Below the pieces are notes generated by a model, which saw only the letters and a program-made list of their open reading frames with translations, searched no databases and had not been told where the DNA came from. 64,000 nucleotides of DNA, taken from positions 190,745 through 254,744 of the forward strand of contig CAZTNI010000002.1 in NCBI GenBank assembly GCA_964615415.1, in the 5' to 3' direction. The first letter of the stretch is position 1; each line of letters opens with the position of its first letter. The position numbers were made by a program, and so were the translations under genes. This stretch comes from an uncultured Candidatus Saccharibacteria bacterium. Lineage in GTDB: Bacteria; Patescibacteriota; Minisyncoccia; Phycocordibacterales; SBAW01. Of the stretch, positions 1,192 to 31,664 are shown one piece after another.

Positions 1192-1623
1192 ATGAGCGAA
1201 GAGGTGTCTCGGCCTAAGGTAGGCGTGGGTGTGTGGATCTTCAAAGACGGAAAACTGCTCCTCGGTAAGCGTAAAGGCTCCCACGGCGAAGGACTCTATT
1301 CGAGTCCTGGCGGCCACTTAGAATTTGGCGAGACACTTGAAGAGTGTGCTGCCCGAGAGACGAAAGAAGAGACCGGGATGGAGATAGAAAATATTCGCTT
1401 ACTGTGCGTAAGCAATATTCTTGCATGGGAAGGTAAGCACTATGTCGATATAGGCATGGTTGCAGACTGGAAATCTGGCGAGCCAGAGGTGCTTGAGCCG
1501 CAGAAGTGCGAGGGATGGGACTGGTACGACATCGACAATCTCCCTGAACCGCAATTTGAGTCAGTGCAGCACTATAAAGAGTCTCTTAAAACAGGAAAAA
1601 TCTACCACGGCACGATTCGCTAG
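1192..1623 (+). CDS. NUDIX hydrolase
   Basis: Canonical Nudix box GHLEFGETLEECAARETKEETGM, matching GX5EX7REUXEEXGU. 143 aa. Confidence 0.85.
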   Translation: MSEEVSRPKVGVGVWIFKDGKLLLGKRKGSHGEGLYSSPGGHLEFGETLEECAARETKEETGMEIENIRLLCVSNILAWEGKHYVDIGMVADWKSGEPEVLEPQKCEGWDWYDIDNLPEPQFESVQHYKESLKTGKIYHGTIR

Positions 1624-1898
1624 TGCGAGTGCGAATGTTTTTCTTTTTGGTTTAAACGCCAACGCTGGTAGAGAAGGACATACCACATGAGCGAGCTTGC
1701 AGCACAGCCGATAGCGGATTGCCAAAGGTTAAGTGTGGAAAACGTGTAGGCAAGAATAGTTGCACTTACTGCCGTAAGCAAAGCCGACCAGAATGCCGGC
1801 TTGTGTGTTTTATGGATGACTGTAGGCACTAACGCTGCTACGAACACCCACTGAATTATCGCGATGACCCAGTCTTGCCACATATATAACGGAAGCAT
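1620..1898 (-). CDS. Small hypothetical membrane protein
   Basis: 92-aa ORF with 2-3 hydrophobic helices. Sits in the gap between the NUDIX gene and leuS, convergent with NUDIX. Confidence 0.4.
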   Translation of the reverse strand: MLPLYMWQDWVIAIIQWVFVAALVPTVIHKTHKPAFWSALLTAVSATILAYTFSTLNLWQSAIGCAASSLMWYVLLYQRWRLNQKEKHSHSH

Positions 1899-1942: not shown

Positions 1943-4903
1943 ATGAAGGGTGCTTACGATCACAAAAAGATCGAAAAGAAGTGGCAAAAAGTCTGGGAAG
2001 ACACTGCTGCATTTACAGCCTCAAACGACTCTACAAAAGAAAAGCACTACGTCCTCGACATGTTTCCGTATCCTTCTGGAAGCGGGCTCCATGTGGGCCA
2101 TGTTGAGGGGTACACCGCAACCGACATTTACAGTCGCTACAAGCGCATGCGGGGTTATAACGTGCTCCACCCGATGGGTTGGGACGCATTTGGCTTGCCG
2201 GCGGAAAACTATGCTATTAAAACTGGCGTTGCGCCGCAAAAAACGACCGACGATGCTATAGAAAATTTTCGTAAGCAAATTAAGTCGCTCGGACTTTCCT
2301 ACGACTGGTCACGCGAGGTGGGCACGCACACGCCCGAGTACTACAAGTGGACGCAGTGGTTCTTTTTAACACTCTACAAAAACGGCTTTGCGGAAAAGCG
2401 CATGGCAAAGGTGAATTGGTGCCCAAAGGACCAAACCGTGCTTGCAAACGAACAGACGGTTTCCGAAACTGGCGAGAAGGGTGTCTGTGTTCGCTGTGGT
2501 ACTAAGGTGGTACAGAAAGATCTCTCGCAGTGGTTTTTCAAAATCACAGACTTCGCAGACCAGCTTGTTGATGACTTAGACACGGTCGACTGGCCTGAGT
2601 CGACGAAAATCAACCAGCGCAACTGGATCGGGCGCTCTGAAGGCGCGGAGATAGATTTTACTGTTGCCAGTTCGGGAGAAAAGATAAAAGTATTTACAAC
2701 ACGTCCAGATACCATCTTCGGGGCGACGTACATGGTGCTTGCGCCTGAACACTCTCTTGTCACAGCACTTGCTGATCGTTTGCAAAACAAAGACGAGGTG
2801 TTTGCATACGTCGAGGCAGCAAAAAATAAGACTGACCTGGAGCGCCAAGAAGAGAGTAAAGACAAAACAGGCGTTGAACTGAAAGGAGTTAAGGCGGTTA
2901 ATCCTGCCACTAAAGAGGAGATCCCAGTATTTATTGCCGACTACGTGCTCGGTGGCTACGGCACAGGCGCCATTATGGCCGTACCTGCACACGACGAGCG
3001 CGACTTTGCCTTTGCAAAGAAATTTAACTTGCCGATCAAATATGTCGTGCTTCCAAAACGCATTGATGAGCGCAATCCGCATCAGCCGGGAAAAGAGCTG
3101 GTTTTTAGAAAGGTAATATCAGGCATCATCCGCAACCCTAAAACCGGTAAATATTTGGTATTGAACTGGAAGCAGCAGCCATGGACCACATTTGTTGTGG
3201 GCGGTATGGAAGAGGGAGAAACTCCGGAAGAAGCTGCACGCCGAGAAATTGCCGAAGAAACAGGTTATAAAAACTTAAAGCTTGTTCGTGTAATGGGCGG
3301 CCCGACGTATGCGGAATACTACGCTGCCCATAAAGGAGTAAACCGTAACGTGCACAATTGGCTAGTATTGTTTGAGCTTGAGAATGAAGAGAAAGATGAA
3401 CTCTCTGCAGAGGAGGCCGCAATGCACGAACTTGAGTGGGTAGATCTCTCTACCATTACCCGCGACCGCATGGCCCACGCAGAGCTAGACATCATGCTTG
3501 AGCGTATCCAATCTGCAACAAATGATTTGTATACTCGACCAGGTATTTTGATAGATTCAGGGGCGTTTTCAGGCCTCGATTCCGAAGACGCAAAGAAAAA
3601 AATCACTGAAGCAGTGGGTGGAAAGATGGTAAAGACCTATCGCTTGCGCGACTGGCTTATTTCTCGCCAGCGTTACTGGGGTGCTCCTATACCGGTTGTG
3701 TACGACCCTGAAGGGAAGCCACATCCAGTACCGGAGGAACACTTGCCTTGGCTCTTACCAACAGACGTCGACTACCTGCCACACGGCACTTCGCCGCTTG
3801 CAACATCGAAAGAGTTGCTTGAGCGCACGGAAAAGATTTTTGGTAAGGGGTGGAAGCCCGAGGCAGATACTATGGATACATTTGTATGCTCGTCGTGGTA
3901 CTTCTTCCGCTTTGCCGACCCGCACAATAAAGATGCTTTTTCAGGCAGAGAGGCTCTTAAGAAATGGATGCCGGTAGACCTTTACATGGGAGGCGCTGAA
4001 CACACGGTGCTGCACCTTATGTATGCTCGTTTCTTTACCAAAGTGCTGCAAAAGTTAGGGTATATCAATTTTACAGAGCCGTTTACTAAGCTGCGTCACC
4101 AGGGACTTATTTTGGCAGAGGATGGCAGCAAGATGTCGAAGTCGAAGGGTAACGTTATTAACCCTGACGACGTAGTGGATACGTTTGGGGCAGACTCTGT
4201 GCGCATGTACGAGATGTTTATGGGTCCGCTTGAGGCACAAAAACCATGGAGTACATCGAGCATCATGGGCGTACGACGCTTCCTTGAACGCGCGTGGAAG
4301 TACACTACAGAAATATGGTTAGAAAATTATATTAAAGATATTAAAGAAAATCCTCAGAATGCGATTGAATATGAAAAAAATGGCTGGAATCCTAAGTTAG
4401 AGAATGAACTTCAGGCGCTGATTTTGAAAGTGACTAACGACATTGAGAGTTTAAAGTTCAACACAGCGTTGTCGGCTTTAATGATCTATCTCAATCTTGT
4501 TTACGAAGAAACCAAACTTCGAACTTATTCTGGCACAGAAGCGACAATGTCTAAGTCAACACAAATGACTAAAGGTCAGTTAGAAACATTTATAAAACTC
4601 CTTAGTCCTTTCGCCCCCCATATTGCCGCCGAAATGTGGGAAAGTATTGGTAATACCAGTCATGTATGGGCCGAAACTTGGCCAGTTGCCGATGCTTCAA
4701 AACTTGCTTCAGCTATGGTTACTATAGCCGTACAGGTAAACGGCAAAATGCGCGCCACTATTGAAATCCCTGCCGACATGAGCGAAGAAGAGGCTCTAAA
4801 GACAGCTCGTTCGAACGAGCAAGTGGCGAAGTGGATTGGACAAGGGAAGGAAAAAAGGGCAGTATACGTGCCAAGTAAGATCATCAGTTTCGTTGTGGAA
4901 TAG
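1943..4903 (+). CDS. leuS: Leucyl-tRNA synthetase carrying an inserted NUDIX hydrolase domain after the CP1 editing domain
   Basis: HIGH motif HVGHVEGY and KMSKS motif KMSKSKGN. Editing-domain motif TTRPDTIFGATYMVLAPEH. Conserved RLRDWLISRQRYWGAPIP. 986 aa versus about 860 typical. Extra ~140 aa contain a perfect Nudix box GGMEEGETPEEAARREIAEETGY. Confidence 0.95.
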   Translation: MKGAYDHKKIEKKWQKVWEDTAAFTASNDSTKEKHYVLDMFPYPSGSGLHVGHVEGYTATDIYSRYKRMRGYNVLHPMGWDAFGLPAENYAIKTGVAPQKTTDDAIENFRKQIKSLGLSYDWSREVGTHTPEYYKWTQWFFLTLYKNGFAEKRMAKVNWCPKDQTVLANEQTVSETGEKGVCVRCGTKVVQKDLSQWFFKITDFADQLVDDLDTVDWPESTKINQRNWIGRSEGAEIDFTVASSGEKIKVFTTRPDTIFGATYMVLAPEHSLVTALADRLQNKDEVFAYVEAAKNKTDLERQEESKDKTGVELKGVKAVNPATKEEIPVFIADYVLGGYGTGAIMAVPAHDERDFAFAKKFNLPIKYVVLPKRIDERNPHQPGKELVFRKVISGIIRNPKTGKYLVLNWKQQPWTTFVVGGMEEGETPEEAARREIAEETGYKNLKLVRVMGGPTYAEYYAAHKGVNRNVHNWLVLFELENEEKDELSAEEAAMHELEWVDLSTITRDRMAHAELDIMLERIQSATNDLYTRPGILIDSGAFSGLDSEDAKKKITEAVGGKMVKTYRLRDWLISRQRYWGAPIPVVYDPEGKPHPVPEEHLPWLLPTDVDYLPHGTSPLATSKELLERTEKIFGKGWKPEADTMDTFVCSSWYFFRFADPHNKDAFSGREALKKWMPVDLYMGGAEHTVLHLMYARFFTKVLQKLGYINFTEPFTKLRHQGLILAEDGSKMSKSKGNVINPDDVVDTFGADSVRMYEMFMGPLEAQKPWSTSSIMGVRRFLERAWKYTTEIWLENYIKDIKENPQNAIEYEKNGWNPKLENELQALILKVTNDIESLKFNTALSALMIYLNLVYEETKLRTYSGTEATMSKSTQMTKGQLETFIKLLSPFAPHIAAEMWESIGNTSHVWAETWPVADASKLASAMVTIAVQVNGKMRATIEIPADMSEEEALKTARSNEQVAKWIGQGKEKRAVYVPSKIISFVVE

Positions 4904-14151: not shown

Positions 14152-15984
14152 CTATTCCACTGTGACCGACTTCGCCAAGTTCCGCGGTTGGTCGACATCA
14201 GTCCCTAGCAGTACGGCCATATGGTAGGCGAGTAACTGCAAAGGAATGACATACATGAACGGCGCGGTGATGAACGTGCTCGCCGGCAGTTCAAGCACCG
14301 CATGGCGCTCAACCTTGCTCCGCTTCCTGCCTGCTTTGTCCGTAAAGAGGAAAATGTTACCCTTCCGAGCTTTCACTTCCTCTACGTTGGAGAGTGTCTT
14401 TTCAAAGATTTCTCCATCGCTCGGCGCAAGAACGATCACGGGCAGACGCTCGTCCACACTTGCCAGAGGACCATGCTTCAGTTCGCCCGCAGCATAGCCC
14501 TGACCAAGCTTGTAAGTCACTTCGGTGAACTTCAGCGCACCCTCTTTAGTAAGGGGGTATGCCGTGTCACGACCCAAGAACAGAAGGTGTGTTGCTTGCG
14601 CAGAGTAGAGCCGTTCGGCCAGTGCATGCACACTCCCTTCAAGTTCCAATACTTCGTTGAGAAGTCGCGGCAATGAGCCAAGCTCCCGGATCATGTCTTT
14701 TTCTTGATCGCGAGAGATTTTTCCCTTCATACGGCCCAGCTTGATAGCCATAGCCGCAAGAATTGCTAGCTGACAGGAGAACGCTTTCGTAGAGGCAACG
14801 CTCTTTTCTGGCCCTGCGTGGGTCTGCAAGAACGTATCGACACCGCGCGCGATCTGAGACTCCGCCACGTTGACGATCCCGATGGTGCGCTGACCACCCT
14901 CTTTGGCATACTGCAAGGACGCAAGTGTATCGGCTGTTTCTCCCGACTGCGACACCACTATCGTGATGTTGCCGCGGGGGAAGGGAGGCTGACGGTACCT
15001 GAACTCGGATGCAATGTCTGTTTTCGTTGGCACCCCTGCGATCTTCTCAAACCAATACTGAGCAACATCGCACGCATAGTGAGAGGTCCCACAGGCAACC
15101 ATGGTAATGAAGTCAACGTCGACTAAGGCCTGCTCGATTTCATCACTGATCTCGAGTCGGTCAAAATCGACATGGTGCGACAGTGTATGACTCACCGCTT
15201 CCGGCTGCTCTGCGATCTCCTTGGCCATATAGTGCTTATACGGACCCTTGTCGATCTGCAGGCTTTGTGCAGGAATTTTCTTTATTGCACGCGCCACTTC
15301 CTTTCCATTTTCCGCATAGATCGTTACCGACTCACGCGTCAAGACAGCACAGTCGCCATTTTCAAGATATGAGACCGTGTCGGTAAGGGGAGCAAGCGCT
15401 AAGGCGTCAGAACCAATATACATCTCATGGTCGCCGTAGCCGATCGCAAGAGGACTCCCTCGACGAGCAGCAATGAGTAGGTCTTGCTCGCCTGCAAACA
15501 GCACCGCAATAGCAAAAGCTCCCTCGAGCTCCAATAGCGTTTCCGTCACGGCCGCCCGAGGCGACAGTTGGCGGAGCAGCCGTTGGTCAATCGCATGCGT
15601 GATCACTTCAGTATCTGTCTGTGAGAGAAATATGGCACCCTCCGCCTGCAGCTTCTCTCGAAGTTGATGGTGGTTTTCGATGATGCCATTGTGCACCACT
15701 GCCACGCGCGCGGTGGCGTGCGGATGCGCGTTTATCTCCGTTGCTTCTCCATGCGTCGCCCATCGGGTATGGCCGATGCCGACAAAACCCTGGAGAGGTC
15801 GTGCCTGAAGAGAAGAGGCGAGGTTATCCAGCTTGCCCGCAGCACGTTCCAGGTCGATTTCGTCATCAGTTTCTAGGGTTGCGATTCCTGCAGAATCGTA
15901 GCCCCTATACTCCATTTGACGCAAAGACTGGACGAGCAGGGGCGCCACCGGACGAACACCCAAAATTCCAACAATGCCACACAT
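14152..15984 (-). CDS. glmS: Glutamine--fructose-6-phosphate aminotransferase
   Basis: N-terminal MCGIVGILG (Cys2 nucleophile). 610 aa with a GATase-2 domain plus two SIS domains. Confidence 0.95.
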   Translation of the reverse strand: MCGIVGILGVRPVAPLLVQSLRQMEYRGYDSAGIATLETDDEIDLERAAGKLDNLASSLQARPLQGFVGIGHTRWATHGEATEINAHPHATARVAVVHNGIIENHHQLREKLQAEGAIFLSQTDTEVITHAIDQRLLRQLSPRAAVTETLLELEGAFAIAVLFAGEQDLLIAARRGSPLAIGYGDHEMYIGSDALALAPLTDTVSYLENGDCAVLTRESVTIYAENGKEVARAIKKIPAQSLQIDKGPYKHYMAKEIAEQPEAVSHTLSHHVDFDRLEISDEIEQALVDVDFITMVACGTSHYACDVAQYWFEKIAGVPTKTDIASEFRYRQPPFPRGNITIVVSQSGETADTLASLQYAKEGGQRTIGIVNVAESQIARGVDTFLQTHAGPEKSVASTKAFSCQLAILAAMAIKLGRMKGKISRDQEKDMIRELGSLPRLLNEVLELEGSVHALAERLYSAQATHLLFLGRDTAYPLTKEGALKFTEVTYKLGQGYAAGELKHGPLASVDERLPVIVLAPSDGEIFEKTLSNVEEVKARKGNIFLFTDKAGRKRSKVERHAVLELPASTFITAPFMYVIPLQLLAYHMAVLLGTDVDQPRNLAKSVTVE

Positions 15985-16207
15985 ACGAGTCTTTCCTTCT
16001 ATAACTGTGGATCTACAAAGTACAGCCAGACGGCAGTATACCAGACAACACTATGTAAATAAAGTGAAGAGAGCGGAGGAGGTTTCCGCACCGCTTTTCT
16101 CTGTGGTCTAATTAGCAAATCTCAAAAAGGCACTGTCAATTTTGACATCTCATCTCAAGCGTATATCGTGTAGGCCAGTCTCCCGTTATCAGATTTACTT
16201 TTTTGCT

Positions 16208-17053
16208 ATGACGCTGTCACTTGTTGTACGAAATGTGGTCTCAGTTCTAGTGCTGCTCGCGGGCTTGCTTTCGGTACTAAGCTTTACAAGCATCGCACAG
16301 GCTTCTATGGCCGGTGATATTAACTGTGAAATTGGCGGCATACTCGACCAACACAATCTCCCAGGTCCATCAGGTTGTGATAACGAGGAAGAAACGTCAC
16401 CCACAGACCTTTGTCCAAACGACACAGGTATTCAGACAACAACCCCATGTCCATCTGACACCAATAGCGGCGGTGATGGCGAAAACAATGGTGGCACGAA
16501 CGAAGGTAATACAGAAGGCAATACCAACGGAGGCTCACAGGGTGACACGTCTTCAAACACTACTACAGTGGGTGGCGGTGCAGCACAGCCAAACGGCGGC
16601 GGCATTGCGCCAGACGTAACGGGTGGAGGCAGTACTACCAGCAGCACGTCAACTCCTTCAAGCGGAACAGTACTTGGTACGAGCACCGTTGCAACTTCCA
16701 CAGAAACTACTCCGACTATTCCATCGACAACCATTTGTGACGGGCAGATCCCATACCTCACCTCTTATATGCGCATGGGTCAGCAAAATAATGCAGCGGA
16801 GGTAATGAAGCTCCAGACATTCCTCAACCTACACCTTAACCTTTCTCTTCCTGTAACAGGCTTCTTTGGTCAAATGACTCATGATGCAGTGCAGGTCTTC
16901 CAGCTTAAACATTCCAAAGATGTGCTACTTCCATGGGTAGCATACGGTTTACCGAATGAAAGTACTTCAACAGGATACGTATATAAAACAACCCAGCGCA
17001 TGATCAATAATCTTGCATGCGCAATGGAACTTCCGGTTCCTCAGTTGCCGTAA
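16208..17053 (+). CDS. Secreted G/T/S/N-rich low-complexity protein with a C-terminal peptidoglycan-binding (PG_binding_1-like) domain
   Basis: Signal peptide MTLSLVVRNVVSVLVLLAGLLSVLSFTSIAQA. C-terminal LQTFLNLHLNLSLPVTGFFGQMTHDAVQVFQ fits PG_binding_1. Start moved to the ATG at 16208. Confidence 0.65.
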   Translation: MTLSLVVRNVVSVLVLLAGLLSVLSFTSIAQASMAGDINCEIGGILDQHNLPGPSGCDNEEETSPTDLCPNDTGIQTTTPCPSDTNSGGDGENNGGTNEGNTEGNTNGGSQGDTSSNTTTVGGGAAQPNGGGIAPDVTGGGSTTSSTSTPSSGTVLGTSTVATSTETTPTIPSTTICDGQIPYLTSYMRMGQQNNAAEVMKLQTFLNLHLNLSLPVTGFFGQMTHDAVQVFQLKHSKDVLLPWVAYGLPNESTSTGYVYKTTQRMINNLACAMELPVPQLP

Positions 17054-17299
17054 AACCAATCTCGGATTCTTGTACGGATCCGAGACGGGCCCAAAAATCT
17101 CCAGCTTTCCGCTGGTTTCCCAGGGTTTTGGGCCCCTCTCAGCTCCGTACGTCCTCTTCGTAGTATAGCAATCGCGGAAGCAAAAAAATCTGCGATTTTT
17201 TATTTATTTTTACACGCACACATCTTCACTCGCACACAAAGGTGTGCTCCTGTGGACAAAATTCATTGACTCTTCAATTGAATGCTCGATAATAGTGCG

Positions 17300-17413
17300 T
17301 AAGGGAAACCAGCGGCCGACATACATGTCTGCTGTTGTTACAGTTGTAAAACAGAATACATTGCGGAATTGAAGCGAAATGCGCATGGCGTGTTTCGCGT
17401 TTTTTGTTTTTTG
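17300..17413 (+). ncRNA. Candidate small RNA or terminated leader: putative promoter TTGACT-16-GATAAT, then about 110 nt ending in an intrinsic terminator
   Basis: -35 at 17265-17270 and -10 at 17287-17292. Hairpin GCGAAATGCGCatgGCGTGTTTCGC followed by GTTTTTTGTTTTTTG at 17374-17413. No + strand CDS ends nearby. Confidence 0.25.
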
Positions 17414-17601
17414 AGAAAACAAACAACGGTAAAGCTCACAGTTAGGCTCGCATAGAGGCGAGTCTTGCTGTGAGCTGTACCTGTAAAGGTGCAGCTCACG
17501 GGACAGGTCGAGTCCCTCTAACATCACGCTCGCCGTACGGAAGCGGGATGAATGGAAGAAAAACATTATTCATTACTAAAAGTAATTACTTAACGAACGA
17601 T

Positions 17602-18381
17602 ATGAAGAAAATTAACTTCGCTGTTGCAGCTGCAACGACTGTCGCTATGCTTTCTGCGGCAACTCCTGCACTCGCATGGAACGGCGGATGGAACTGGAAT
17701 CAGGATGAGAGCGACACAACGATCTCAAACACAAGCACTATCACTGTTTCTAATGTAAACACTGCAGCAGTTACGAATGGCACTGTTGCTGTTTCTAACA
17801 CTGGCGGTAACCAAGCAGTTGGTGGCGAGGGTGCAGAAGGTGGTGATGCAGAGTCTACTGGCGAGGATGCTAATGCAGAAGGCGGAAATGGCGGTAAAGG
17901 CGGAAATGCAGGCGTACAGACCGGCGTAGCAGTATCATCAGCAGGCACTATGAACATGGTCAACACCAACACTGTTGAGGTTGAAGTTGAGGACTGCGGT
18001 TGCGCAGCTGGCGACCTCGAGGACGAGGGTGACACGACTATCACCAACACTGACACTGTCGCTGTTGGTAATGCAAACACAGGTGTTGTTACGAACTTCA
18101 CTATTGCACTTTCAAACACTGGTCTCAACGGCGCACAGGGTGGCGCAGGTGAGGAAGGTGGCGAAGCTACTGCAGAGGGTGAAGAGGACAACAACGGTGG
18201 TTGGGGCTGGTGGAACTGGCACCATGGCAACGACAACGATGACGAAGGTTCTGCTAACGCAGAGGGCGGCAACGGTAATAATGGTGGCGATGCTGTCATT
18301 ATCTCAGGTGACGCAGGCTCAGAGGCAGGCACAATCAACGTTGTTAACACCAACTTTGTTCGTGTAATAAAGGGTTTCTAA
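17602..18381 (+). CDS. Secreted repeat protein. Two ~125-aa repeats carrying the 'NTxxVTN...SNTG...GG(D/E)A...VNTN' motif family.
   Basis: Signal peptide MKKINFAVAAATTVAMLSAATPALA. Repeats TTISNTSTITVSNVNTAAVTNGTVAVSNTGGNQAVGG and TTITNTDTVAVGNANTGVVTNFTIALSNTGLNGAQGG. MNMVNTNTVEV and INVVNTNFVRV. Confidence 0.7.
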   Translation: MKKINFAVAAATTVAMLSAATPALAWNGGWNWNQDESDTTISNTSTITVSNVNTAAVTNGTVAVSNTGGNQAVGGEGAEGGDAESTGEDANAEGGNGGKGGNAGVQTGVAVSSAGTMNMVNTNTVEVEVEDCGCAAGDLEDEGDTTITNTDTVAVGNANTGVVTNFTIALSNTGLNGAQGGAGEEGGEATAEGEEDNNGGWGWWNWHHGNDNDDEGSANAEGGNGNNGGDAVIISGDAGSEAGTINVVNTNFVRVIKGF

Positions 18382-18491
18382 TCAAACCCTGAGCAAGAAG
18401 GGAGGCAACTCCCTCCTTCTCATGAGGTCTTCTTAACACTGGGAGGCTTCAGAGAGGGAATACCGATTTACAAGCTGACTTTATTGGACGT

Positions 18492-21464
18492 ATGACTGAA
18501 CACACACACTTACTTGGGCGACGTGCGATAGTACTTTCGCTCATAGTATCGATGATGCTCTCGAGCTTTGCCCCTGCTTTTTTCGCACATGCAGAAGAAG
18601 AGGCAATACCTCCACAAACAGAAACTATCCCTGAATCTCCTGCGACTGAAACCACCACAGAAGAGCAGACCACCTCTCCTGAAATCACTGTAGAAGATCA
18701 GATTACCTCTCCTGAAACTACCTCCACTCAATCACAAGAAGAAACGACTCAAACAACCCTCTCTGATACTCAGCCAACTACAACTCCTGAGACCCCTGAA
18801 AATCAGGGCGACGCCGTCGTAGACACGGGAGATGCTGCTGCACTTACTGATGCACAAAATACCACCAACACAAACACAGTGGACGTGACTGCAGACACCG
18901 CAACCACAACCATCACTAACACCAATACTGCAAGTACCACCAACGAAGCGGCAGCAGCTGCCTCAACAGGAGACAATACCGCAGCAGGAGGTTCTGCAAC
19001 TGTTACCACAGGAGATGCAATCGCATCAGCAAATGTCATCAACGTTGTTAACACAAACATCATCAACTCGCCGGGCATATTAGCCTTCTTTAATATGCTC
19101 TTTGGTGGCGGATTCGACCTGCGTGGCTTCGACCTTTCTTACTTCTTTGGTGGAGGAGACACCTCAACTACTGGGACCCAAAACAATTGCTCGCTTCTTT
19201 CTTGTGCAAGCGACGAAGGCACACTGCTTGTGTCTAACACCAACGACGCGACTGTAACCAATACGGTGTTGGTGCGTTCAAACACAGGTAGCAATACCGC
19301 TTCTTCAACTGGCGAGGGCGATGCTTCTGTCACTACCGGCGATGCATACGCCTCTGCAAACGTATTCAATTTGGTAAATACCAATCTTATCAACTCAAAC
19401 TATCTCCTTGTTGCACTGAACAACTTTGGCGACATGTTTGGAGACATTACGCTCCCTGGCGCAAGCTTCTTTGAAACATTAATGGGAGGTTCAGGTGCCA
19501 CCAACACATCCATCAACAACAGCAACACTGCTACCGTCACTAACAACACTGCTGCAACTGCAGACAGTGGCAATAACACTGCAACTGGCGGCACGGGAGG
19601 AGATGCTGTAGTCACTACCGGCGACGCGCACTCTGCGGCATCTACCTACAATCAAGTGAATACCAACATGGTGGGCGGGAGTACGGTCTTTTTCCTCATA
19701 AACATTTTTGGTGACTGGGCAGGCAATGTACAAGGCCTTCCAGAAGGGATGACATGGACTCGCACGCCAACAGGTATTGCTCTTATGAATGAAAGTGGGG
19801 GAGGCGGCACAGTAACTGAATCCCTCTCAACCCTAGGCGTTTCCAATACCAATACAGCAAACGTAACAAACAACGTGCAGGCATGGGCATTGACCGGCGC
19901 AAACAAAGCAGAGAGTACTGGTGACGGCGACGCAGACATTGAAACAGGTGATGCATACGCGTCAACAAACGTGGTCAACATGGTGAACACAAACGTTATT
20001 GGTAAAAATTGGATCTTTGCCATCTTTAACATATTTGGCAACTGGAGCGGCAATTTGTCTTTCGGCAAACCTGACTTGTGGATCGGTGCAGTTGCAGAAA
20101 CTCCTAATCCAACACTGCCTGGCTCTGCGATGAAGTACCACTTTACCGTCTCGAACCGCGGCGACGCAGATGCAACAGGAGTAAAACTTAAGGCAGAATT
20201 CCTAAAAACGCTCATCAAGTTTAATGAGGGCAACCCGATCGACGCTGGTATGCAGTGGGACCTTGGCACTATCAAAAAAGGAGAGACAAGGGAATTTGTC
20301 TACAGCGCAAACGCAGGCCTTATCCCTGACGGCACCACTGCTTCAGCCGACCTCACCGCTTCTGTTTCCAGCGCCGAAACGGACAACAATAGCATCGACA
20401 ATACTGAAAAACTGTCTGTATTGGTCCAGAGTCCTATTCAGACAACAGGAAGCGCACCTATAGGCAAATGGACCACTGATCCACACCTGCAGATGACTAA
20501 AAAAGTGAGCGTTGCAACAACTACAGTTCCTGCCAGTGTCGACTACGAAGTAACGATCCGCAATACGGGCGGTGCTGCATACAACGTAACGCTTACCGAC
20601 ACACTTACCGATCCCAAGGGAGGCACGGTGTACAAGCGCGCATGGAAACTCAACACTATTGGTGAAAACGAAGAGATCTCTCTCACCTATTCAGTAGAAT
20701 ACAAAGGAGACCTTCCGCTCGGTAAGTATAAAAATACTGCGCAGCTTAAAGGCCAGAAGGGTAATTCTTCGGCTGTGTATGCCGTCGACATGCAGAAGGT
20801 GACCGCTAATGCAACAATTGAACTTGTTGCTGGTGGAGAAGTGCTTGGTGCAGCAACTTCAAAAGTTGCAGCCCCAGCGCCAGCGTGCGCAGCATTCATC
20901 ACTTCATACATCTCACCAAACGGGACCAATAGCTCTGTCCAGGTACGCCGACTTCAATACTTCCTCCGCGACTTCCAGAACGAACTTCTTACGCCAAACG
21001 GTATATATGACGAGGCAACCATTGAAGCTGTAAAACGCTTCCAGGAAAAATACGCCGGAGATGTACTTATGCCATGGGGTATGTCGGACCCAAGCGGCGT
21101 CGTGTACTACACAACACAACAAAAAATTAACGAGCTGTACTGCCAGGGTATGAAAAAGTTCCCCCTCTCAAAAACTCAACAGCAACACATCTTCGCGTAT
21201 GCTCAAAAAAATGTACCGCTCGCCACAGCTCCTGCAACCACAACTCAAAAGTGGTCAGATGCTATTGAACAGTTCTTTGTAACGCAGCCTGTGTCCCCGG
21301 CAGTATTGCTTCCTGTACCAAAAGTAGCTACGCCGGATGTACAAGAGAGCACATCTGTTGGATTCTTTGGATTTAACCTTGGATTCTTCTCACTATTTAG
21401 TAAACTGTTTGCACTGTCGCCCCTGTACTTCGACATTCCTCACGCAGAGGCAGCAGGTAAGTAA
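18492..21464 (+). CDS. Large 990-aa surface protein: four VNTN/TTGDA repeats, a DUF11-like region, a C-terminal PG_binding_1-like domain and a hydrophobic tail
   Basis: Repeats such as VTTGDAIASANVINVVNTNIINS, VTTGDAYASANVFNLVNTNLINS, VTTGDAHSAASTYNQVNTNMVGG, IETGDAYASTNVVNMVNTNVIGK. DUF11-like KYHFTVSNRGDADATGVKL and YEVTIRNTGGAAYNVTLTDTL. PG-binding VQVRRLQYFLRDFQNELLTPNGIYDEATIEAVKRFQEKY. Confidence 0.8.
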   Translation: MTEHTHLLGRRAIVLSLIVSMMLSSFAPAFFAHAEEEAIPPQTETIPESPATETTTEEQTTSPEITVEDQITSPETTSTQSQEETTQTTLSDTQPTTTPETPENQGDAVVDTGDAAALTDAQNTTNTNTVDVTADTATTTITNTNTASTTNEAAAAASTGDNTAAGGSATVTTGDAIASANVINVVNTNIINSPGILAFFNMLFGGGFDLRGFDLSYFFGGGDTSTTGTQNNCSLLSCASDEGTLLVSNTNDATVTNTVLVRSNTGSNTASSTGEGDASVTTGDAYASANVFNLVNTNLINSNYLLVALNNFGDMFGDITLPGASFFETLMGGSGATNTSINNSNTATVTNNTAATADSGNNTATGGTGGDAVVTTGDAHSAASTYNQVNTNMVGGSTVFFLINIFGDWAGNVQGLPEGMTWTRTPTGIALMNESGGGGTVTESLSTLGVSNTNTANVTNNVQAWALTGANKAESTGDGDADIETGDAYASTNVVNMVNTNVIGKNWIFAIFNIFGNWSGNLSFGKPDLWIGAVAETPNPTLPGSAMKYHFTVSNRGDADATGVKLKAEFLKTLIKFNEGNPIDAGMQWDLGTIKKGETREFVYSANAGLIPDGTTASADLTASVSSAETDNNSIDNTEKLSVLVQSPIQTTGSAPIGKWTTDPHLQMTKKVSVATTTVPASVDYEVTIRNTGGAAYNVTLTDTLTDPKGGTVYKRAWKLNTIGENEEISLTYSVEYKGDLPLGKYKNTAQLKGQKGNSSAVYAVDMQKVTANATIELVAGGEVLGAATSKVAAPAPACAAFITSYISPNGTNSSVQVRRLQYFLRDFQNELLTPNGIYDEATIEAVKRFQEKYAGDVLMPWGMSDPSGVVYYTTQQKINELYCQGMKKFPLSKTQQQHIFAYAQKNVPLATAPATTTQKWSDAIEQFFVTQPVSPAVLLPVPKVATPDVQESTSVGFFGFNLGFFSLFSKLFALSPLYFDIPHAEAAGK

Positions 21465-21466
21465 CC

Positions 21467-21919
21467 ATGGATACGCTTGGAAGCTTTATCACGGGATTGG
21501 TCATTTCAGCCACCGCTTCAGCAACTGCAGTGACTGGAGGAGCGCATGCTACAGGGGGAGAGCAGGTTACAACCGGAGACAGTTATAGTTCAGTACGAGT
21601 AGAAAATGTTATACACGCAACGAACGGAGGAGGCACGTCGTATACAAAAGTAGAAACAAACACCAACGGACACATTCAGACCGAGGAAAAAACGGAAACA
21701 TTTCCTCCCAGTTCTCACAGTTCAGTGCGAGTTCATGTAGCAACGTCTACTATTGCAAGCACTACAAAGTTGGTGGCAAGCTCTTCAGTTACGCTCGATG
21801 TAATAAGTACTACTGCGTCTTCGTCATCTACTGAGACGCAGAACCTACGAGCACGAATTGCAGAACGAGTTGCAAAGTTATTTGGACAGATATGGGGTTG
21901 GTTTTCATTTACACGGTAA
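21467..21919 (+). CDS. Small secreted protein sharing the TTGD-x-YSS...NV...TNGG motif with the two upstream repeat proteins
   Basis: Starts 3 nt after the upstream stop. GGEQVTTGDSYSSVRVENVIHATNGGG echoes the repeat core. Confidence 0.55.
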   Translation: MDTLGSFITGLVISATASATAVTGGAHATGGEQVTTGDSYSSVRVENVIHATNGGGTSYTKVETNTNGHIQTEEKTETFPPSSHSSVRVHVATSTIASTTKLVASSSVTLDVISTTASSSSTETQNLRARIAERVAKLFGQIWGWFSFTR

Positions 21920-21939
21920 TTACTCACACAACTTCAGAT

Positions 21940-24198
21940 ATGGATCGTAAAAAGATTTTTTCCGGTTTGACCGCGCTCGCACTTACAGTCACCTGTTTTA
22001 CATCAACACCTGCACACGCTGCAGGTCCTAACCTCATACAAAACCCTTCCTTTGAAACCGGAAGCGACGCAACTGCTACTAACTGGACTACGAACAGTTT
22101 TGGTTCAAGTACCGTCGCGTTTAGCATTTCGACCAGTTCAGTACACACTGGTGTGCGTGCTGCCACAATAGACGTCAGCAACTACACCAATGGCGACGCA
22201 AAATGGGTGCACGAACCAGTTACTGTTACTCCAGGCAGCTACTACACAATGAGTTTGTGGTACAAGTCGAGTGTTCAAAGTGCGCTGTACGCCCGCTACA
22301 ACAATAGTGACGTCGATGGCACATCAACAGGATTTCACTGGCTTGCAGACATACCTGCAAGTGACGCATGGACCGAGTACACCGGCAGCATAACTATTCC
22401 TGCAGGTGTAACAGCGATTCAACTTATCCAAACACTAGAGAGTAACGGTTCACTTACTATCGACGATTATTCTCTGACACTCGAAGAAGCACCTACGTTT
22501 AGCGAAGGGCGCGTCACATTTACCTTTGATGATGGTTGGCAGTCTATTTACGACAATGCCCGCCCTATTCTAAACGCAGCCGGAATTCGCACTACTCAGT
22601 ACGTTTACAGTGATGCAATGAACCAGGTGCACGGTCCTATTTACATGACTGCACCAGAACTACTAGAAATGCAGGCAGAGGGTCACGATATTGATGCCCA
22701 CTCTCGCTCACACGCAGACCTCACCACACTCAGCGGATCAGCACTCACGAATGAGATAGGAGGGTCACGCTCAGACCTTATCGCAGCAGGATTCTCTCCT
22801 GTAGACTCATACGCATACCCGTATGGCGCCTACAACAGCGACATACGACAACAAATGATTGACGCTGGTTTTCTTGGAGCACGCACCGTAGACGAAGGCT
22901 ACAATTACGCAGACTCTGACAAGTACACCCTTAAAATTCAGCATGTCACTAACACCACTTCAGCCAGCACCATTAAAGGCTGGATTGATACTGCGCGCAG
23001 CGAAAAATCATGGCTCATTTTGATGTTCCATGAAATTAGAACCGCATCGACAACTTGTGCTGGTGATGATGTAACGGAATGTGCTACTACGGACGTGCTT
23101 CAAGAAGTCGCTTCCTATGTAACTGCGCCTGCCACAGAGATCTGTATACTCACCATGTCCGAAGCGCTCAACAATGTGGCATGTGGCTCGACATCGACCC
23201 CAACAAATCAGGCACCTGTTGTGGCAAATCCAATTCCAGATCAAGACGCCACAGAGGATACATTGTTTAGCCACACCTTCTCGCCAGACACGTTTACCGA
23301 TGCAGACAACGATCCTCTGACCTACACCGCAACAACGCCCCTATGGCTTTCGTTTGACGCGTCTACCCGCACCTTTACCGGCACACCAACAAATGCTGAC
23401 GTAGGAATTCACGCCGTAACAGTTACCGCCACAGACACTACCAATGCTTCAACCACCGACTCATTTACTGTGACTGTTGCAAACAGTAATGGCGCTCCGA
23501 CTATTGCTACAGCAGCATTCAGTATTCCTGAAAATAGTGTGACAGGCACTGTGGTAGGGACCACCACTGCGAACGATAGCGACACAGGCGATACGCTTAC
23601 CTACGAGATAGTGTCCGGAAACACCAGTGGTGCATTTTCTCTCGATGCTACAACTGGCACAATTACCGTTGCACAGTCTTCAGCACTCGACTTTGAAACT
23701 TCTCCCGCGTTCACGTTGGTTATCAAGGTAACCGACAGCAGCAGTCTGTCGGCACAAGCTACAACAACCATTACTCTTACCGATGTTGCAGAAAATACTC
23801 CTAACCCAGACCCTACACCAACTCCACAACCATCCTCTGGCGGGGGCAACGGAGGAGGCGGAGGAGGAGGTGTCGTGCTTGGCCTTATTGGACAGGTAGT
23901 AACCAACCTCAACAATACTGTTCCCACTATCACAACCAACGGAGTTGTGCTCGGTACATCGACACAAAACTTCCTCTTTACAAAACCTCTATATTGGGGT
24001 ATGTATGGAGAGGACGTCGTAGAGCTTCATAAAATCCTTATTTCGCAAGGGTATTTGAAGATCTCTGCGCCAACAGGTTACTTCGGTCCGTTAACGTTTG
24101 CAGCAGTAAAACTGTATCAGCAAGCGCACGGGATCGACATGGTCGGCGTGGTAGGTCCTATTACACGGGCCTCCCTTAACAGTTCTTTCGGTCAATAA
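21940..24198 (+). CDS. Secreted multidomain protein: CBM-like beta-sandwich, CE4 polysaccharide deacetylase (NodB) domain, two cadherin/dystroglycan-like Ig domains, P/T and poly-Gly linker, C-terminal PG_binding_1-like domain
   Basis: Signal peptide. NodB motifs TFTFDDGW, HSRSHADL, AYPYGAY. CADG-like ...DADNDPLTYTATTPLWLSFDASTRTFTGTP. Cadherin-like ...DSDTGDTLTYEIVSGNTSGAFSLDATTGTITV. PG-binding YGEDVVELHKILISQGYL...FGPLTFAAVKLYQ. Confidence 0.8.
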   Translation: MDRKKIFSGLTALALTVTCFTSTPAHAAGPNLIQNPSFETGSDATATNWTTNSFGSSTVAFSISTSSVHTGVRAATIDVSNYTNGDAKWVHEPVTVTPGSYYTMSLWYKSSVQSALYARYNNSDVDGTSTGFHWLADIPASDAWTEYTGSITIPAGVTAIQLIQTLESNGSLTIDDYSLTLEEAPTFSEGRVTFTFDDGWQSIYDNARPILNAAGIRTTQYVYSDAMNQVHGPIYMTAPELLEMQAEGHDIDAHSRSHADLTTLSGSALTNEIGGSRSDLIAAGFSPVDSYAYPYGAYNSDIRQQMIDAGFLGARTVDEGYNYADSDKYTLKIQHVTNTTSASTIKGWIDTARSEKSWLILMFHEIRTASTTCAGDDVTECATTDVLQEVASYVTAPATEICILTMSEALNNVACGSTSTPTNQAPVVANPIPDQDATEDTLFSHTFSPDTFTDADNDPLTYTATTPLWLSFDASTRTFTGTPTNADVGIHAVTVTATDTTNASTTDSFTVTVANSNGAPTIATAAFSIPENSVTGTVVGTTTANDSDTGDTLTYEIVSGNTSGAFSLDATTGTITVAQSSALDFETSPAFTLVIKVTDSSSLSAQATTTITLTDVAENTPNPDPTPTPQPSSGGGNGGGGGGGVVLGLIGQVVTNLNNTVPTITTNGVVLGTSTQNFLFTKPLYWGMYGEDVVELHKILISQGYLKISAPTGYFGPLTFAAVKLYQQAHGIDMVGVVGPITRASLNSSFGQ

Positions 24199-24213
24199 AC
24201 AGGAGAAAGTTGG

Positions 24214-24441
24214 ATGCATGACGAGGCCAACAACGTCCAGGAGGTATTTGCTCCGGACGAACTCGAGCCTGGACGGCTCCCGGGGACCCAGCGTCCTACG
24301 CGGGCAGCCCTGAAAAAGAGGGGGGTGGACTTCTACGAAGGTGGAGGCCATAGCCGGGAACCCAATTTTGATTCAGGAATCGGGGGCGGGGGTCGAAAAT
24401 CGAAGTCTTTCGACCCTTCATTTGGCCAACCCAAAACCTAA
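24214..24441 (+). CDS. Possible small Gly-rich disordered protein. Low confidence; may be non-coding.
   Basis: AGGAGA Shine-Dalgarno 8 nt upstream of the ATG. Strong terminator immediately downstream. Sequence is low-complexity (GGGHS...GIGGGGRKSK). Confidence 0.2.
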   Translation: MHDEANNVQEVFAPDELEPGRLPGTQRPTRAALKKRGVDFYEGGGHSREPNFDSGIGGGGRKSKSFDPSFGQPKT

Positions 24442-24450
24442 ATCACACAC

Positions 24451-24482
24451 GACGCGCATACCCTGCGCGTCGTTTTCTTTTG
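24451..24482 (+). terminator. Rho-independent terminator
   Basis: GACGCGCAtacccTGCGCGTCgttttctttt. 8-bp GC stem plus T-run. Confidence 0.7.
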
Positions 24483-24595
24483 ACAAATAGATATTCGCAC
24501 AGTGTAAGTCACGCACGGTAATCAACATACACGACTCCCACCAAACACTGCGGTATACTGGCACTATTACAAAGTAACTGAAACGCAAGGCCGAT

Positions 24596-26548
24596 ATGGT
24601 GGGAAGAATGTATGGAAGTATTGTATACGTAGCATTTATTAGTCTTTTGTACTGTCTATCCCTGCCAGTAGCATCTGCAGCACCCAACCTCGTACCAAAT
24701 GGCGACTTTGAGGTAGTGTCAAGCAGCGCTTCTATCCCACAACACTGGACGAGCAACTATTGGGGCTCACTGCGTGCAACATTTACCTACCCAGTAACAG
24801 GAAATCCGGGCAAAGCTGCAAAAGTAACTGTCAGCAATCGAACTTCTGGTGACGCAAAATGGGTATCCCCGGAAGTGCCAGCCGCTCCTGGAGAAAAATA
24901 CATCTATAGCAACACGTATCTATCCAGCATACAGACGGAGGTAACCGTGCAGTTTAAAATGTCGAATGGTTCTTACAAATACGTATGGTTGGGGAGTGTG
25001 CCGGCAAGTTCGAACTGGAAGACGTATAGCGGCACCCTCACGGTGCCAAGCGGAGCAGTTGCATTCACTGTCTTCCACCTTATAAACCGCAACGGCTCTC
25101 TTTCTATCGATAACGTGTCTGTTACAAATTCAGCCTCAACACCTCCGCCTCCTCCGACACCCACCCCAGTACCCACCTGCACACTTACAGCAACTCCTGA
25201 CACTATCGAAAAAGGACAGCAGTCGGTATTGACCTGGACCACACAATACGCCAGCTCAACCTCGATTGATAACGGGGTTATTGCTACCGCAACGACAAGC
25301 GGTTCCGCAAACGTCTCTCCATCATCAACAACACTCTACACATTGCACGCTACGGGCGCAGGCGGCACAGTCCAGTGCACCAAAACAGTGACGGTGACCG
25401 ACCCTGTGCCACCACCACCGCCACCAACTAACAACCTTATCAACAACGGTGATCTTGAAACAGCGTCCAGTAACGCGTCATTGCCGGTGGGATGGAACAC
25501 CAATTATTGGGGTTCGTTGCGAGCCACTTTTTCATACCCAAGCACAGGTGCTAGTGGAGGAAAAGCAGCAAAAGTAACGGTTGCAAACTATCAATCCGGT
25601 GATGCTAAGTGGTGGTTTACTCATATTCCCGCATCAAGCAACACGTTGTACCGTTACACCAACACATATACCGCAACAGCACCTTCCAACATAACGGTTG
25701 AATTTAAGATGCAAGATGGCAGCCACCAGTACATGTGGCTCTCTGACGCACCCGCTCAAAGCAGCTGGACGCCATTTACCGCGCAAATTACCGTGCCCGC
25801 AGGCGCAGTATCATTTACCGTGTTCCACTCGCTCGCACGAAATGGCTCACTTACGATCGACAATGTCTCAGTAACTGCCTTGTCACAGAGTTCATTCGCA
25901 GAGCCTATGGTTTCCTTTGTGTTCGATGACGCACTTGCAAGTCAATACAGCAACGCACGATCAATTCTTAATACCGCTGGTTTCAAAGGAGTATTCTCGG
26001 TCATTACGCAGTTTGCAGGCAGCGCTCCGTACATGACATGGAACAATCTCACCACTCTTAAAAACGAAGGTCACGAAGTGAATAGTCATACGCGCACTCA
26101 TGCAGACTTAACCACTCTTGCTGCAGCCAGTCTCCAGAGCGAAATACAAGGCTCATATGACGACCTTATTGCGCGCGGATTTGCTCCTAAAACACTCGTA
26201 TATCCGTACGGAGGCACAAGTCCTGCAGTGAAACAAGTAGTGCAAGATGCTGGGTATCTGGGCGCACGCGGGAGCTACTATGGGTTTAATGCGCCAGTGA
26301 CCGACCGTTATGCACTCTACGATATCCGTCTTGATAAAACCTCCACACTCAGTGGCACAAAAGCAGTTATAGACCAAGTAATTGCAAACAAGCGCTGGCT
26401 CGTATTTGAACTTCACGATATCTTGCCAAGCGGCGGCGATGAATACACCATTACGCCAACACTCCTACAATCAATCGTGTCGTATCTTAAAGAAAAAGGG
26501 GTAAAAGTAGTGACGCTTGAAGAGGGGGTAGGGCTTATGACGCCGTAG
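24596..26548 (+). CDS. Secreted protein with two tandem CBM-like beta-sandwich domains and a CE4 polysaccharide deacetylase domain. Paralog of the N-terminal half of the 21940 gene.
   Basis: Repeated PNLVPNGDFE.../NLINNGDLE...WxxNYWGSLRATF(T/S)YP modules. NodB motifs FVFDDALAS, HTRTHADL, VYPYGG. Confidence 0.8.
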   Translation: MVGRMYGSIVYVAFISLLYCLSLPVASAAPNLVPNGDFEVVSSSASIPQHWTSNYWGSLRATFTYPVTGNPGKAAKVTVSNRTSGDAKWVSPEVPAAPGEKYIYSNTYLSSIQTEVTVQFKMSNGSYKYVWLGSVPASSNWKTYSGTLTVPSGAVAFTVFHLINRNGSLSIDNVSVTNSASTPPPPPTPTPVPTCTLTATPDTIEKGQQSVLTWTTQYASSTSIDNGVIATATTSGSANVSPSSTTLYTLHATGAGGTVQCTKTVTVTDPVPPPPPPTNNLINNGDLETASSNASLPVGWNTNYWGSLRATFSYPSTGASGGKAAKVTVANYQSGDAKWWFTHIPASSNTLYRYTNTYTATAPSNITVEFKMQDGSHQYMWLSDAPAQSSWTPFTAQITVPAGAVSFTVFHSLARNGSLTIDNVSVTALSQSSFAEPMVSFVFDDALASQYSNARSILNTAGFKGVFSVITQFAGSAPYMTWNNLTTLKNEGHEVNSHTRTHADLTTLAAASLQSEIQGSYDDLIARGFAPKTLVYPYGGTSPAVKQVVQDAGYLGARGSYYGFNAPVTDRYALYDIRLDKTSTLSGTKAVIDQVIANKRWLVFELHDILPSGGDEYTITPTLLQSIVSYLKEKGVKVVTLEEGVGLMTP

Positions 26549-27326
26549 TAGGGAGTTCTGCAAGCTTACTAATGATGTCTTTAATGAGGCGCTCGGTATC
26601 TTCAGGACCGAGCACTTCTTCTGTTTTAATACCAGTTTCTTTTACGACAGAGTCGTTTCCGCCTTCTTCAAGCGCATCACCAATGTAGAGCATTTCCGCA
26701 ACAGTAACGTCTGCAAGTTCAACAAGTTGTCGAATACCGTATGCCTTGTTGACACCCTGATGCGTAATATCGATCGACGTTGCTGCATTTACTCCTATAG
26801 AAAATTCTGGTAGCCGACGCTTAAGGGCATCATAGAGCGGCTTCCGTTTCTCCCGAGTAGGATCCCACGCACGCTTTTCTTCAACAGGTGCTTTTTGGCC
26901 TAATGCAGAAAACGTGATCTGCGCACCTCTATCTTCTATGCGTTCACCCCACTCCTTCGGACGACTAGGATCATCTTCTGCAAAGCCAGTTTCTGTCATC
27001 GCTTCTTTCAAAGCTTGCATTACCTTTTCGCGTTCAATAGGGTTAAATGCACGATCATACTGTACCCACCACTTTCCCTTACGATACACATAACACCGCG
27101 CTGCATTCATAGGGAAGAGAAAGAGATTCTCAAAATGAGCATCCTCGGGGAGCGCAGGAAGAAACTGAGTCTCCATTTGGGCAAACGAGGCGCCTGAAAG
27201 CACCGCAACTTTTGTTTTACTCATAAGGTCTGCTAACAGAGACCCCATTTCAAGAGTGAGTGGCTGTTTACTTTCAGCGAGTGTTCCATCGAGGTCAAAC
27301 GCGACAAGTCGTGGTTTAAAATCCAT
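26535..27326 (-). CDS. HAD-IIB hydrolase resembling eukaryotic-type phosphomannomutase (PMM/Sec53 family)
   Basis: N-terminal FDLDGTL. SIGVNAATSIDITHQGVNKAYGIRQL fits the PMM GGqiSfDvfPxGWDK block. MLYIGDALEEGGNDSVV fits FFGDKT..GGNDyEI. PEDTERL fits PEDT. Confidence 0.65.
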   Translation of the reverse strand: MDFKPRLVAFDLDGTLAESKQPLTLEMGSLLADLMSKTKVAVLSGASFAQMETQFLPALPEDAHFENLFLFPMNAARCYVYRKGKWWVQYDRAFNPIEREKVMQALKEAMTETGFAEDDPSRPKEWGERIEDRGAQITFSALGQKAPVEEKRAWDPTREKRKPLYDALKRRLPEFSIGVNAATSIDITHQGVNKAYGIRQLVELADVTVAEMLYIGDALEEGGNDSVVKETGIKTEEVLGPEDTERLIKDIISKLAELPTTAS

Positions 27327-27331
27327 TGCAG

Positions 27332-29257: not shown

Positions 29258-29285
29258 ACCGTAGTACTTAGTATACTCGAACTTT

Positions 29286-30440: not shown

Positions 30441-30469
30441 TGCCTTACCGTGTCTCTATATTGTACACC

Positions 30470-30823
30470 CTAGTTCCTGCCGTATTTGTCTTGGAAGCGT
30501 ACTATATCGTTTTCTTCAAAGACACCGAGAGCAACTTCAAGAAATTGCAGGCCCTGCGGCCCCGCCTCTACTCTATGTTTAGTATTTTTTGCAACAAAAA
30601 ACTCGTCTCCAGGCTGCACGTGAGAGATCTTTTCACCTACCGTCACACTTCCCGAACCTCGGAGGATTTTCCATTCTTCATCGCGGTGGGCGTGTTGCTG
30701 CAAACTCAGCGATTGACTAGGTTCTACGGTGATTATTTTTACCGTCGAAGGCTCATTAAGAGTAAAACGCTCAAAAAATCCCCACGGACGCTCTTCTTTG
30801 TAATAATGTTGAAAACTTTTCAT
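30470..30823 (-). CDS. Cupin resembling the mannose-6-phosphate isomerase type II (ManC C-terminal) cupin domain
   Basis: EERPWGFFERF...VKIITVEPSQSLSLQQHAHRDEEWKILRGSGSVTVGE...ENDIVRFQDKYGR matches the PMI type II cupin pattern. Confidence 0.7.
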   Translation of the reverse strand: MKSFQHYYKEERPWGFFERFTLNEPSTVKIITVEPSQSLSLQQHAHRDEEWKILRGSGSVTVGEKISHVQPGDEFFVAKNTKHRVEAGPQGLQFLEVALGVFEENDIVRFQDKYGRN

Positions 30824-30834
30824 AATACAGACGA

Positions 30835-31236: not shown

Positions 31237-31317
31237 CGCTCAGATCTTCAGAACACTTTACAAAGTTGGAAAATATAGTAGAGTCCTAAAGGAAGCGTTT
31301 TTGGATTGGAGGAGAAC

Positions 31318-31617: not shown

Positions 31618-31627
31618 GAATTCCATT

Positions 31628-31664
31628 GAGTCCATACCCTATGAGTATGGACTCTTTTCTTTTT
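31628..31664 (+). terminator. Rho-independent terminator (+ strand)
   Basis: GAGTCCATACcctatgaGTATGGACTCttttcttttt. 10-bp stem plus T-run. Confidence 0.65.

Follow-up and report, generated by a model that had tools for sequence, protein, structure and literature searches.

Aminoacyl-tRNA synthetases (aaRSs) are among the most conserved enzymes, and extra catalytic domains are rare in the bacterial ones. The solved bacterial leucyl-tRNA synthetases (LeuRSs), those of Thermus thermophilus (PDB 1H3N and 2BYT) and Escherichia coli (4AQ7 and 4ARC), are built, in this order, from a Rossmann core with HIGH and KMSKS motifs, a CP1 editing domain that bears Thr-rich and Asp motifs, and the anticodon-binding and C-terminal domains, and CP1 is free of nested domains in every solved LeuRS. 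According to a 2026 survey of domain insertions (PMC13114784), the LeuRS editing domain is never a host to other domains. Here, we describe a LeuRS that is encoded in a 64,000-nucleotide stretch (the window) of contig CAZTNI010000002.1, from an uncultured Candidatus Saccharibacteria bacterium. This LeuRS shares family, domain order, and all of the above elements with the solved enzymes (33 to 38% identity) but differs from them in carrying a Nudix enzyme within a loop of CP1. The LeuRS-Nudix family is a counter-example to the never-hosting entry of the survey. Our full-text literature search found no description of this architecture, or of the equivalent one in prolyl-tRNA synthetase (ProRS) that we report below.

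The host gene, leuS, lies at positions 1943..4903 of the window (+ strand) and encodes 986 amino acids (aa), as stated in a first-pass annotation of this DNA. The protein scored 991.9 bits against the bacterial LeuRS model TIGR00396 (leuS_bact; cut-off, 548.4), with a match in two stretches on either side of the insert, and a PDB search returned T. thermophilus LeuRS with an E value of 3e-215. Its AlphaFold2 model (predicted local distance difference test [pLDDT] score, 89.8; predicted template modeling [pTM] score, 0.81) matched full-length solved LeuRSs in Foldseek with TM scores, normalized to the target, of 0.75 to 0.85. By motif search, we located the HIGH motif of the synthetic site (HVGH, aa 50 to 53; 2090..2101, + strand), the KMSKS motif (aa 730 to 734; 4130..4144, + strand), and the CP1 motifs TTRPDT (aa 252 to 257) and AHDERD (aa 349 to 354). 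Within these motifs, H50, G52, H53, T252, T253, R254, D256, T257, H350, D351, R353, D354, S732, and K733 are invariant across 88 related LeuRSs. Since all four motifs are present and invariant in this way, the host looks fully functional and, judging by its intact motifs only, would be capable of both leucylation and editing. The protein has no counterpart of T. thermophilus residues 593 to 635, which belong to the leucine-specific domain region (4130..4160; aa 729 to 738).

Alignment to T. thermophilus LeuRS (Tth) paired residues 5 to 369 with Tth 4 to 362 and residues 528 to 738 with Tth 375 to 592. Between the two blocks, 158 residues (aa 370 to 527; 3050..3523, + strand) stand where Thermus has a 12-residue loop, which amounts to ∼146 extra residues. 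The first-pass annotation had estimated their number well, at about 140, but had the module begin ∼15 residues too late. It had also placed the insert after the end of CP1, whereas the insert in fact lies within this domain: the PF13603 match (aa 226 to 375; E = 5.1e-65) covers only positions 1 to 146 of the 185-position profile, and CP1 continues beyond the insert with its tail (GILIDSGAFSGLD...). CP1 is therefore encoded in two parts, one before the insert (aa 226 to 369; 2618..3049, + strand) and one after it (aa 528 to 565, ...GILIDSGAFSGLDSEDAKKKITEAVGG...; 3524..3637, + strand). The second part aligns to Tth 375 onwards, forms a helix (547 to 557) and a strand (561 to 566) in the AlphaFold2 model, and leads back to the catalytic core at YRLRDW. 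The junctions of the insert read ...KYVV|LPKR... and ...SATN|DLYT....

The insert is a genuine in-frame Nudix domain, as had been proposed. Pfam NUDIX (PF00293; cut-off, 21.1 bits) matched aa 389 to 512 of the whole LeuRS (E = 5.6e-17, 62.4 bits) and also matched the first-pass interval 3095-3530 translated alone (E = 9.5e-19); the insert by itself scored 68.2 bits. Its Nudix box, GGMEEGETPEEAARREIAEETGY (aa 420 to 442; 3200..3268, + strand), agrees with the consensus GX5EX7REUXEEXGU at every fixed position and thus deserves the description "perfect" that it had received. The insert is confidently folded in prediction and has the alpha/beta/alpha Nudix fold. In an alignment of 344 copies of the module, the predicted metal-binding and catalytic glutamates of the box, E435, E438, and E439, are kept in 341, 327, and 342 copies, respectively (95 to 99%), and the box glycines G1 and G22 in 338 and 336 copies. 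Outside the box, the family has its own set of conserved residues, each at 88 to 99%: R389 on the 5' side (3107..3109, + strand) and K464, N467, R468, L479, E491, and W499 on the 3' side (3332..3439, + strand). The conservation of the three glutamates makes it probable that the module is an active pyrophosphohydrolase. Likewise, the retention of the fold, of the glutamate triad, and of the conserved basic residues suggests that it is most likely a Mg2+-dependent hydrolase, and we consider it likely, with somewhat more reserve, that it works independently of LeuRS catalysis. Taken as a whole, a functional LeuRS with a complete, autonomous, and probably active Nudix pyrophosphohydrolase in a permissive CP1 loop is the reading that we favor and hold to be reasonably probable.

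We then considered how far this architecture extends. A GTDB scan, with one genome per species, gave at least 575 relatives; in the best 80 loci, which we examined, the module was within LeuRS at the site of the window in 80/80. The labels of these loci name Paceibacteria, Nomura-, Taylor-, Kaiser-, Zambryski-, Kerfeld-, Berkel-, Buchanan-, and Levybacteria. A profile search over 1.84 billion representatives yielded 341 matches at E values of <1e-10, and the best 150, which we examined, were mostly LeuRSs or LeuRS fragments. Among the best 120 LeuRS matches, 83 have a Nudix module of 151 to 173 aa at the same site and 3 have a HAD domain there, while 34, which are equally close relatives, carry no insert. 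Dozens of protein clusters (NCBI, JGI, ENA, and Logan) also have the LeuRS-Nudix architecture, and such proteins are already in public databases, named plainly leucine--tRNA ligase. The module is thus widespread in Patescibacteria (Candidate Phyla Radiation), with a patchy presence. The earlier remark that it is not a standard LeuRS feature holds for characterized LeuRSs but not for Patescibacteria, where the insert is common. A fusion unique to the window was ruled out: a word-index search with the insert only gave free-standing proteins, and the whole-protein, profile, and GTDB scans found the fusions.

The module is not confined to one position or to one copy per protein. We counted 254 modules at the site of the window (S3, ∼aa 369), 14 at S1 (∼aa 215 to 232), 7 at S2 (∼aa 241 to 250), and 3 at S4 (∼aa 590 to 640). 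Ten LeuRSs have two Nudix modules and two have three; in one of the former (P0141), the module tree places the two copies as nearest neighbors, pointing to a duplication within the gene. The same Nudix family is found in five archaeal-type ProRSs of 641 to 674 aa, between the anticodon-binding and C-terminal domains, and the closest insert-free relatives of these ProRSs are labeled Nanoarchaeota or Woesearchaeota (DPANN archaea). Other small hydrolases are nested in related LeuRSs as well: Ham1 in three, HAD_2 in five, and a Ser_hydrolase or alpha-beta hydrolase domain in six. These domains occupy the Nudix site or lie near aa 243, within the CP2 region, or ahead of the anticodon-binding domain, and they often accompany a Nudix module.

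Free-standing members of the family (16 proteins of 154 to 197 aa) are 35 to 45% identical to the insert over the whole module. As they align with it from end to end, a complete enzyme was inserted into LeuRS. These uncharacterized proteins, annotated for example as [quoted passage not shown] are encoded by separate genes and share both the conserved residues and the two box types with the embedded copies. The module is a member of a distinct Nudix family of Patescibacteria, whose free-standing forms have ∼155 to 165 aa. In the two loci examined, the free-standing copies were not linked to leuS. One of these copies (P0002, of the Q type defined below) lies in a run of small enzymes (locus L001, 1..12480), among them a member of the HIT family and a stand-alone Ser_hydrolase (PF06821); domains of the latter family are also nested in some LeuRSs.

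Positions 7 and 15 of the box (aa 426 and 434 in the window) covary, with Glu/Arg in 242 copies, Gln/non-Arg in 59, and mixed pairs in 7. This strong covariation of the first box Glu with Arg defines two module types, E/R and Q/non-R, and the insert of the window is of the canonical E/R type. The Q type corresponds approximately to one clade of the module tree, both types occur free-standing and embedded, and LeuRSs with several copies often pair one module of each type. Three proteins show Trp at the Gly positions of the Nudix box (e.g., WWVKNWET...EETWY); they probably come from lineages in which UGA encodes Gly (code 25), their UGA codons having been translated as Trp.

The history of the module differs from that of its host. 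On a tree of 120 LeuRS cores, the presence or absence of the insert switches at least 17 times, a rough count since this tree and the module tree are quick neighbor-joining trees with no support values. Modules of the E/R type have a mean pairwise identity of 35%, versus 63% for their host cores, and module and host divergences are nearly uncorrelated (r = 0.15 for this type). No position of the LeuRS core discriminated proteins with and without the insert, the maximum being 0.25 bit. The insertion is old. We found no direct or inverted repeats at its boundaries, and its GC content, GC content at third codon positions, and codon usage resemble those of the remaining leuS; on these grounds, a recent mobile insertion was ruled out. 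An intein or Hint element was also ruled out, as the insert folds as a Nudix domain and its N-terminal junction has no Cys, Ser, or Thr nucleophile.

According to the mechanism that we favor, LeuRS would aminoacylate and edit as usual, while the Nudix module, in its surface loop of CP1, would work autonomously as a Mg2+-dependent hydrolase of a phosphate-rich nucleotide substrate. Dinucleoside polyphosphates are a known side product of aaRSs. The module might clear such dinucleoside or nucleoside polyphosphates (ApnA-type), formed by the synthetase from the aminoacyl-adenylate. It is an accessory plug-in that, among relatives, has been gained, lost, duplicated within the gene, moved to other LeuRS loops, and exchanged for other small hydrolases. 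ApnA is the most economical candidate substrate, yet we propose it tentatively and regard an ApnA-type substrate as possible rather than probable. Similarity to ApnA hydrolases, mainly driven by the Nudix box, was detected for Ndx1 (E = 3.1e-5) and the Aquifex diadenosine tetraphosphate (Ap4A) hydrolase (E = 2.8e-4), followed by ADP-sugar pyrophosphatases (2e-3). RppH and ApnA hydrolases are among the characterized folds closest to the module, by small margins over other Nudix subfamilies. These neighbors and the synthetase hosts (LeuRS and ProRS) are no more than compatible with the coupling to Ap4A turnover or to a tRNA-directed activity that the first-pass annotation had suggested. ApnA hydrolases reportedly carry a signature Tyr about 16 to 18 residues past the Nudix box. 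In the insert, Y459 (+17) and Y460 (+18) fall in or next to this range; two aromatic residues are recurrent there across the family, with no single residue conserved at ≥70%. None of the Nudix subfamily models reached its cut-off on the insert; in particular, the MutT models PRK10776 and TIGR00586 gave 21 to 25 bits (cut-off, 148) and 21 bits (cut-off, 97.9), respectively. Neither these models nor the structural neighbors discriminated between substrates.

The module might instead be a hitch-hiking house-cleaning enzyme, which sanitizes the nucleotide pool (oxidized or deaminated nucleoside triphosphates, ADP-sugars) and has no chemical tie to LeuRS. The CP1 loops would then simply be insertion-tolerant sites in an essential and constitutively expressed protein, an arrangement suited to a streamlined genome that must retain small accessory enzymes. 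Several of our results are consistent with such a passenger: the presence of other guests in the same or neighboring LeuRS loops of relatives (Ham1, of the ITP/XTP pyrophosphatase family, as well as HAD_2 and Ser_hydrolase domains), the patchy presence of the module, the decoupling of its history from that of the host, and the existence of free-standing copies. The additional hydrolases nested in LeuRS and the absence of co-adaptation in the LeuRS core fit a passenger role nearly as well as the functional coupling that we favor. However, LeuRS and ProRS were the only hosts of those embedded copies that could be placed, in the best 150 representatives as well as in the 80 GTDB loci, whereas pure tolerance predicts further host proteins. 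Moreover, the module entered LeuRS at no fewer than four sites and, outside Bacteria, an aaRS of class II as well. The near restriction of embedded copies to synthetases suggests a functional tie to the host, and we therefore consider the passenger role doubtful, albeit a serious contender.

A broader scheme, which we judge unlikely, would turn the synthetase into a platform on which several kinds of hydrolase cassette (the two Nudix types, Ham1, HAD, and serine hydrolase) dock interchangeably, in Patescibacteria and in the ProRSs of DPANN-like archaea. The cassettes would spread between alleles by recombination and would act in cis on ligands or products of the synthetase: on ApnA or other adenylate side-products, on non-canonical ATP analogues, or on the 5' end of the bound tRNA. 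If true, this would add a third clean-up layer within aaRSs, beside pre- and post-transfer editing.

Two further explanations are less likely than the passenger role. The tethered module could act on tRNA, as the first-pass annotation had entertained, and strip pyrophosphate or a cap (5'-ppp, NAD-, Np4A-) off the 5' end of the tRNA, much like RppH. We find this very improbable in view of the scores of the RppH models (NCBIfam PRK00714) on the window LeuRS, 22 to 26 bits against cut-offs of 116 to 259. Free-standing copies of the module are also common, Ham1 and HAD, which are co-inserted in relatives, are families with small-molecule substrates, and there is no indication that Patescibacterial tRNAs retain 5'-triphosphates. 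The window offers no tRNA or RNase P context either: no tRNA gene, RNase P, or riboswitch was found in its 64 kb, and no Rfam family reached its gathering threshold. Alternatively, the module could be non-catalytic, a structural, tRNA-binding, or nucleotide-sensing appendage that, for example, offsets the missing leucine-specific domain. The absence of a Tth 593-635 counterpart, the Q/non-R variant of the box in ∼18% of copies, and the faster evolution of the module relative to the core would agree with this view. Nevertheless, the glutamate triad is as conserved when Q-type copies are included, free-standing homologues keep the same residues, and equally close LeuRSs without the insert exist, so that a non-catalytic role has only a slim chance of being correct. 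Finally, an artefact (a chimeric assembly, a gene fusion due to a frameshift, or an intein-like element that the mature protein would lack), which is solely an a priori possibility for any metagenome-derived sequence, is excluded for practical purposes because many independent genomes share the same in-frame architecture (the best 80 independent GTDB species loci and dozens of protein clusters), the insert having moreover leuS-like composition and codon usage, no boundary repeats, and a Nudix rather than a Hint fold.

The functional LeuRS with an embedded, probably active Nudix enzyme, which remains our preferred reading, has another Nudix gene in its vicinity. This stand-alone gene (1192..1623, + strand; 143 aa), already recognized in the first-pass annotation, is confirmed by PF00293 (E = 6.2e-21), and 319 nucleotides separate its end from leuS. 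Its product is NUDX1/NUDT15/MutT-like (PDB 6fl4, E = 7.5e-35) and is a neighbor of the LeuRS-Nudix feature, not a part of it. The connection with the insert that its position had evoked could not be demonstrated: similarity between the two proteins is limited to the Nudix box, they belong to different subfamilies, and their synteny is not conserved, which rules out that the insert is a copy of the upstream gene. The locus with the closest synteny (L003) reproduces the window in its succession of DUF5671, leuS-Nudix, sigma70_r4 protein, DUF8128, YceG, and MnmA, but it lacks both the upstream Nudix gene and a 92-aa membrane-like open reading frame (ORF; 1620..1898, - strand), which lies between this gene and leuS in the window. 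These two genes form a two-gene addition between DUF5671 and leuS that is not present in syntenic relatives. The 80 GTDB loci have DUF5671 upstream of leuS in 23 cases and a sigma-like gene downstream in 40, and none (0/80) has a homologue of the upstream Nudix gene beside leuS. Because neither these loci nor L003 contain such a neighbor, the adjacency is incidental.

Elsewhere in the window, no further synthetase or insert-bearing protein was found among the ten large ORFs scanned. An envelope-glycan gene cluster (14152..36919) encodes GlmS, a 990-aa DUF11 protein, a GH130 phosphorylase, a GT2 glycosyltransferase, a UDP-glucose dehydrogenase, and three polysaccharide deacetylase proteins, one of them with Ig, cadherin-like, and peptidoglycan-binding domains. 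Beyond this cluster lies a gene for a MASE1 hybrid histidine kinase (43079..45202).

Together, our results reveal that Nudix enzymes, one to three per protein, are a routine component of the LeuRS proofreading domain across a large and poorly known section of the bacterial tree, and that the same lineages sometimes build ITPase-like, HAD, or serine-hydrolase domains into this synthetase. If the module acts on by-products such as Ap4A, these LeuRSs would be the first aaRSs both to make and to destroy that alarmone, and they would offer direct access to ApnA metabolism in organisms that do not grow in culture on their own. Should the module be just a passenger, the LeuRS-Nudix proteins would show streamlined genomes packing accessory enzymes into essential proteins, and the CP1 loops would be natural domain-insertion sites usable by protein engineers.

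Outside its own family, the module is only distantly related to characterized enzymes. The NudH-type enzymes (RppH of E. coli and Bdellovibrio, T. thermophilus Ndx1, Chlamydia CT771, Aquifex aq_158, and human NUDT2) share 16 to 28% identity with it, and 2azw, a MutT/nudix family protein of Enterococcus faecalis solved by structural genomics whose entry title states no function, shares 18%; all of these are free-standing, unlike the insert. For the attachment of a small-molecule enzyme domain to a class Ia aaRS, a precedent is provided by NCBIfam NF040702, isoleucine--tRNA ligase with an N-acetyltransferase domain, although both the host and the guest fold (GNAT) are different and the window LeuRS scores 74.9 bits against a cut-off of 1999. 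The bifunctional NadM-Nudix protein (nicotinamide mononucleotide [NMN] adenylyltransferase/ADP-ribose pyrophosphatase, PRK05379) is an end-to-end fusion rather than a nested one, involves another Nudix subfamily, and is weakly matched in the window by the upstream Nudix gene only. Nonetheless, it carries a Nudix domain on an adenylyl-transferring enzyme, NadM, which we take to belong to the same Rossmann-like nucleotidyltransferase class as class I aaRSs, and thus sets a precedent for the coupling of the two activities via a shared nucleotide.

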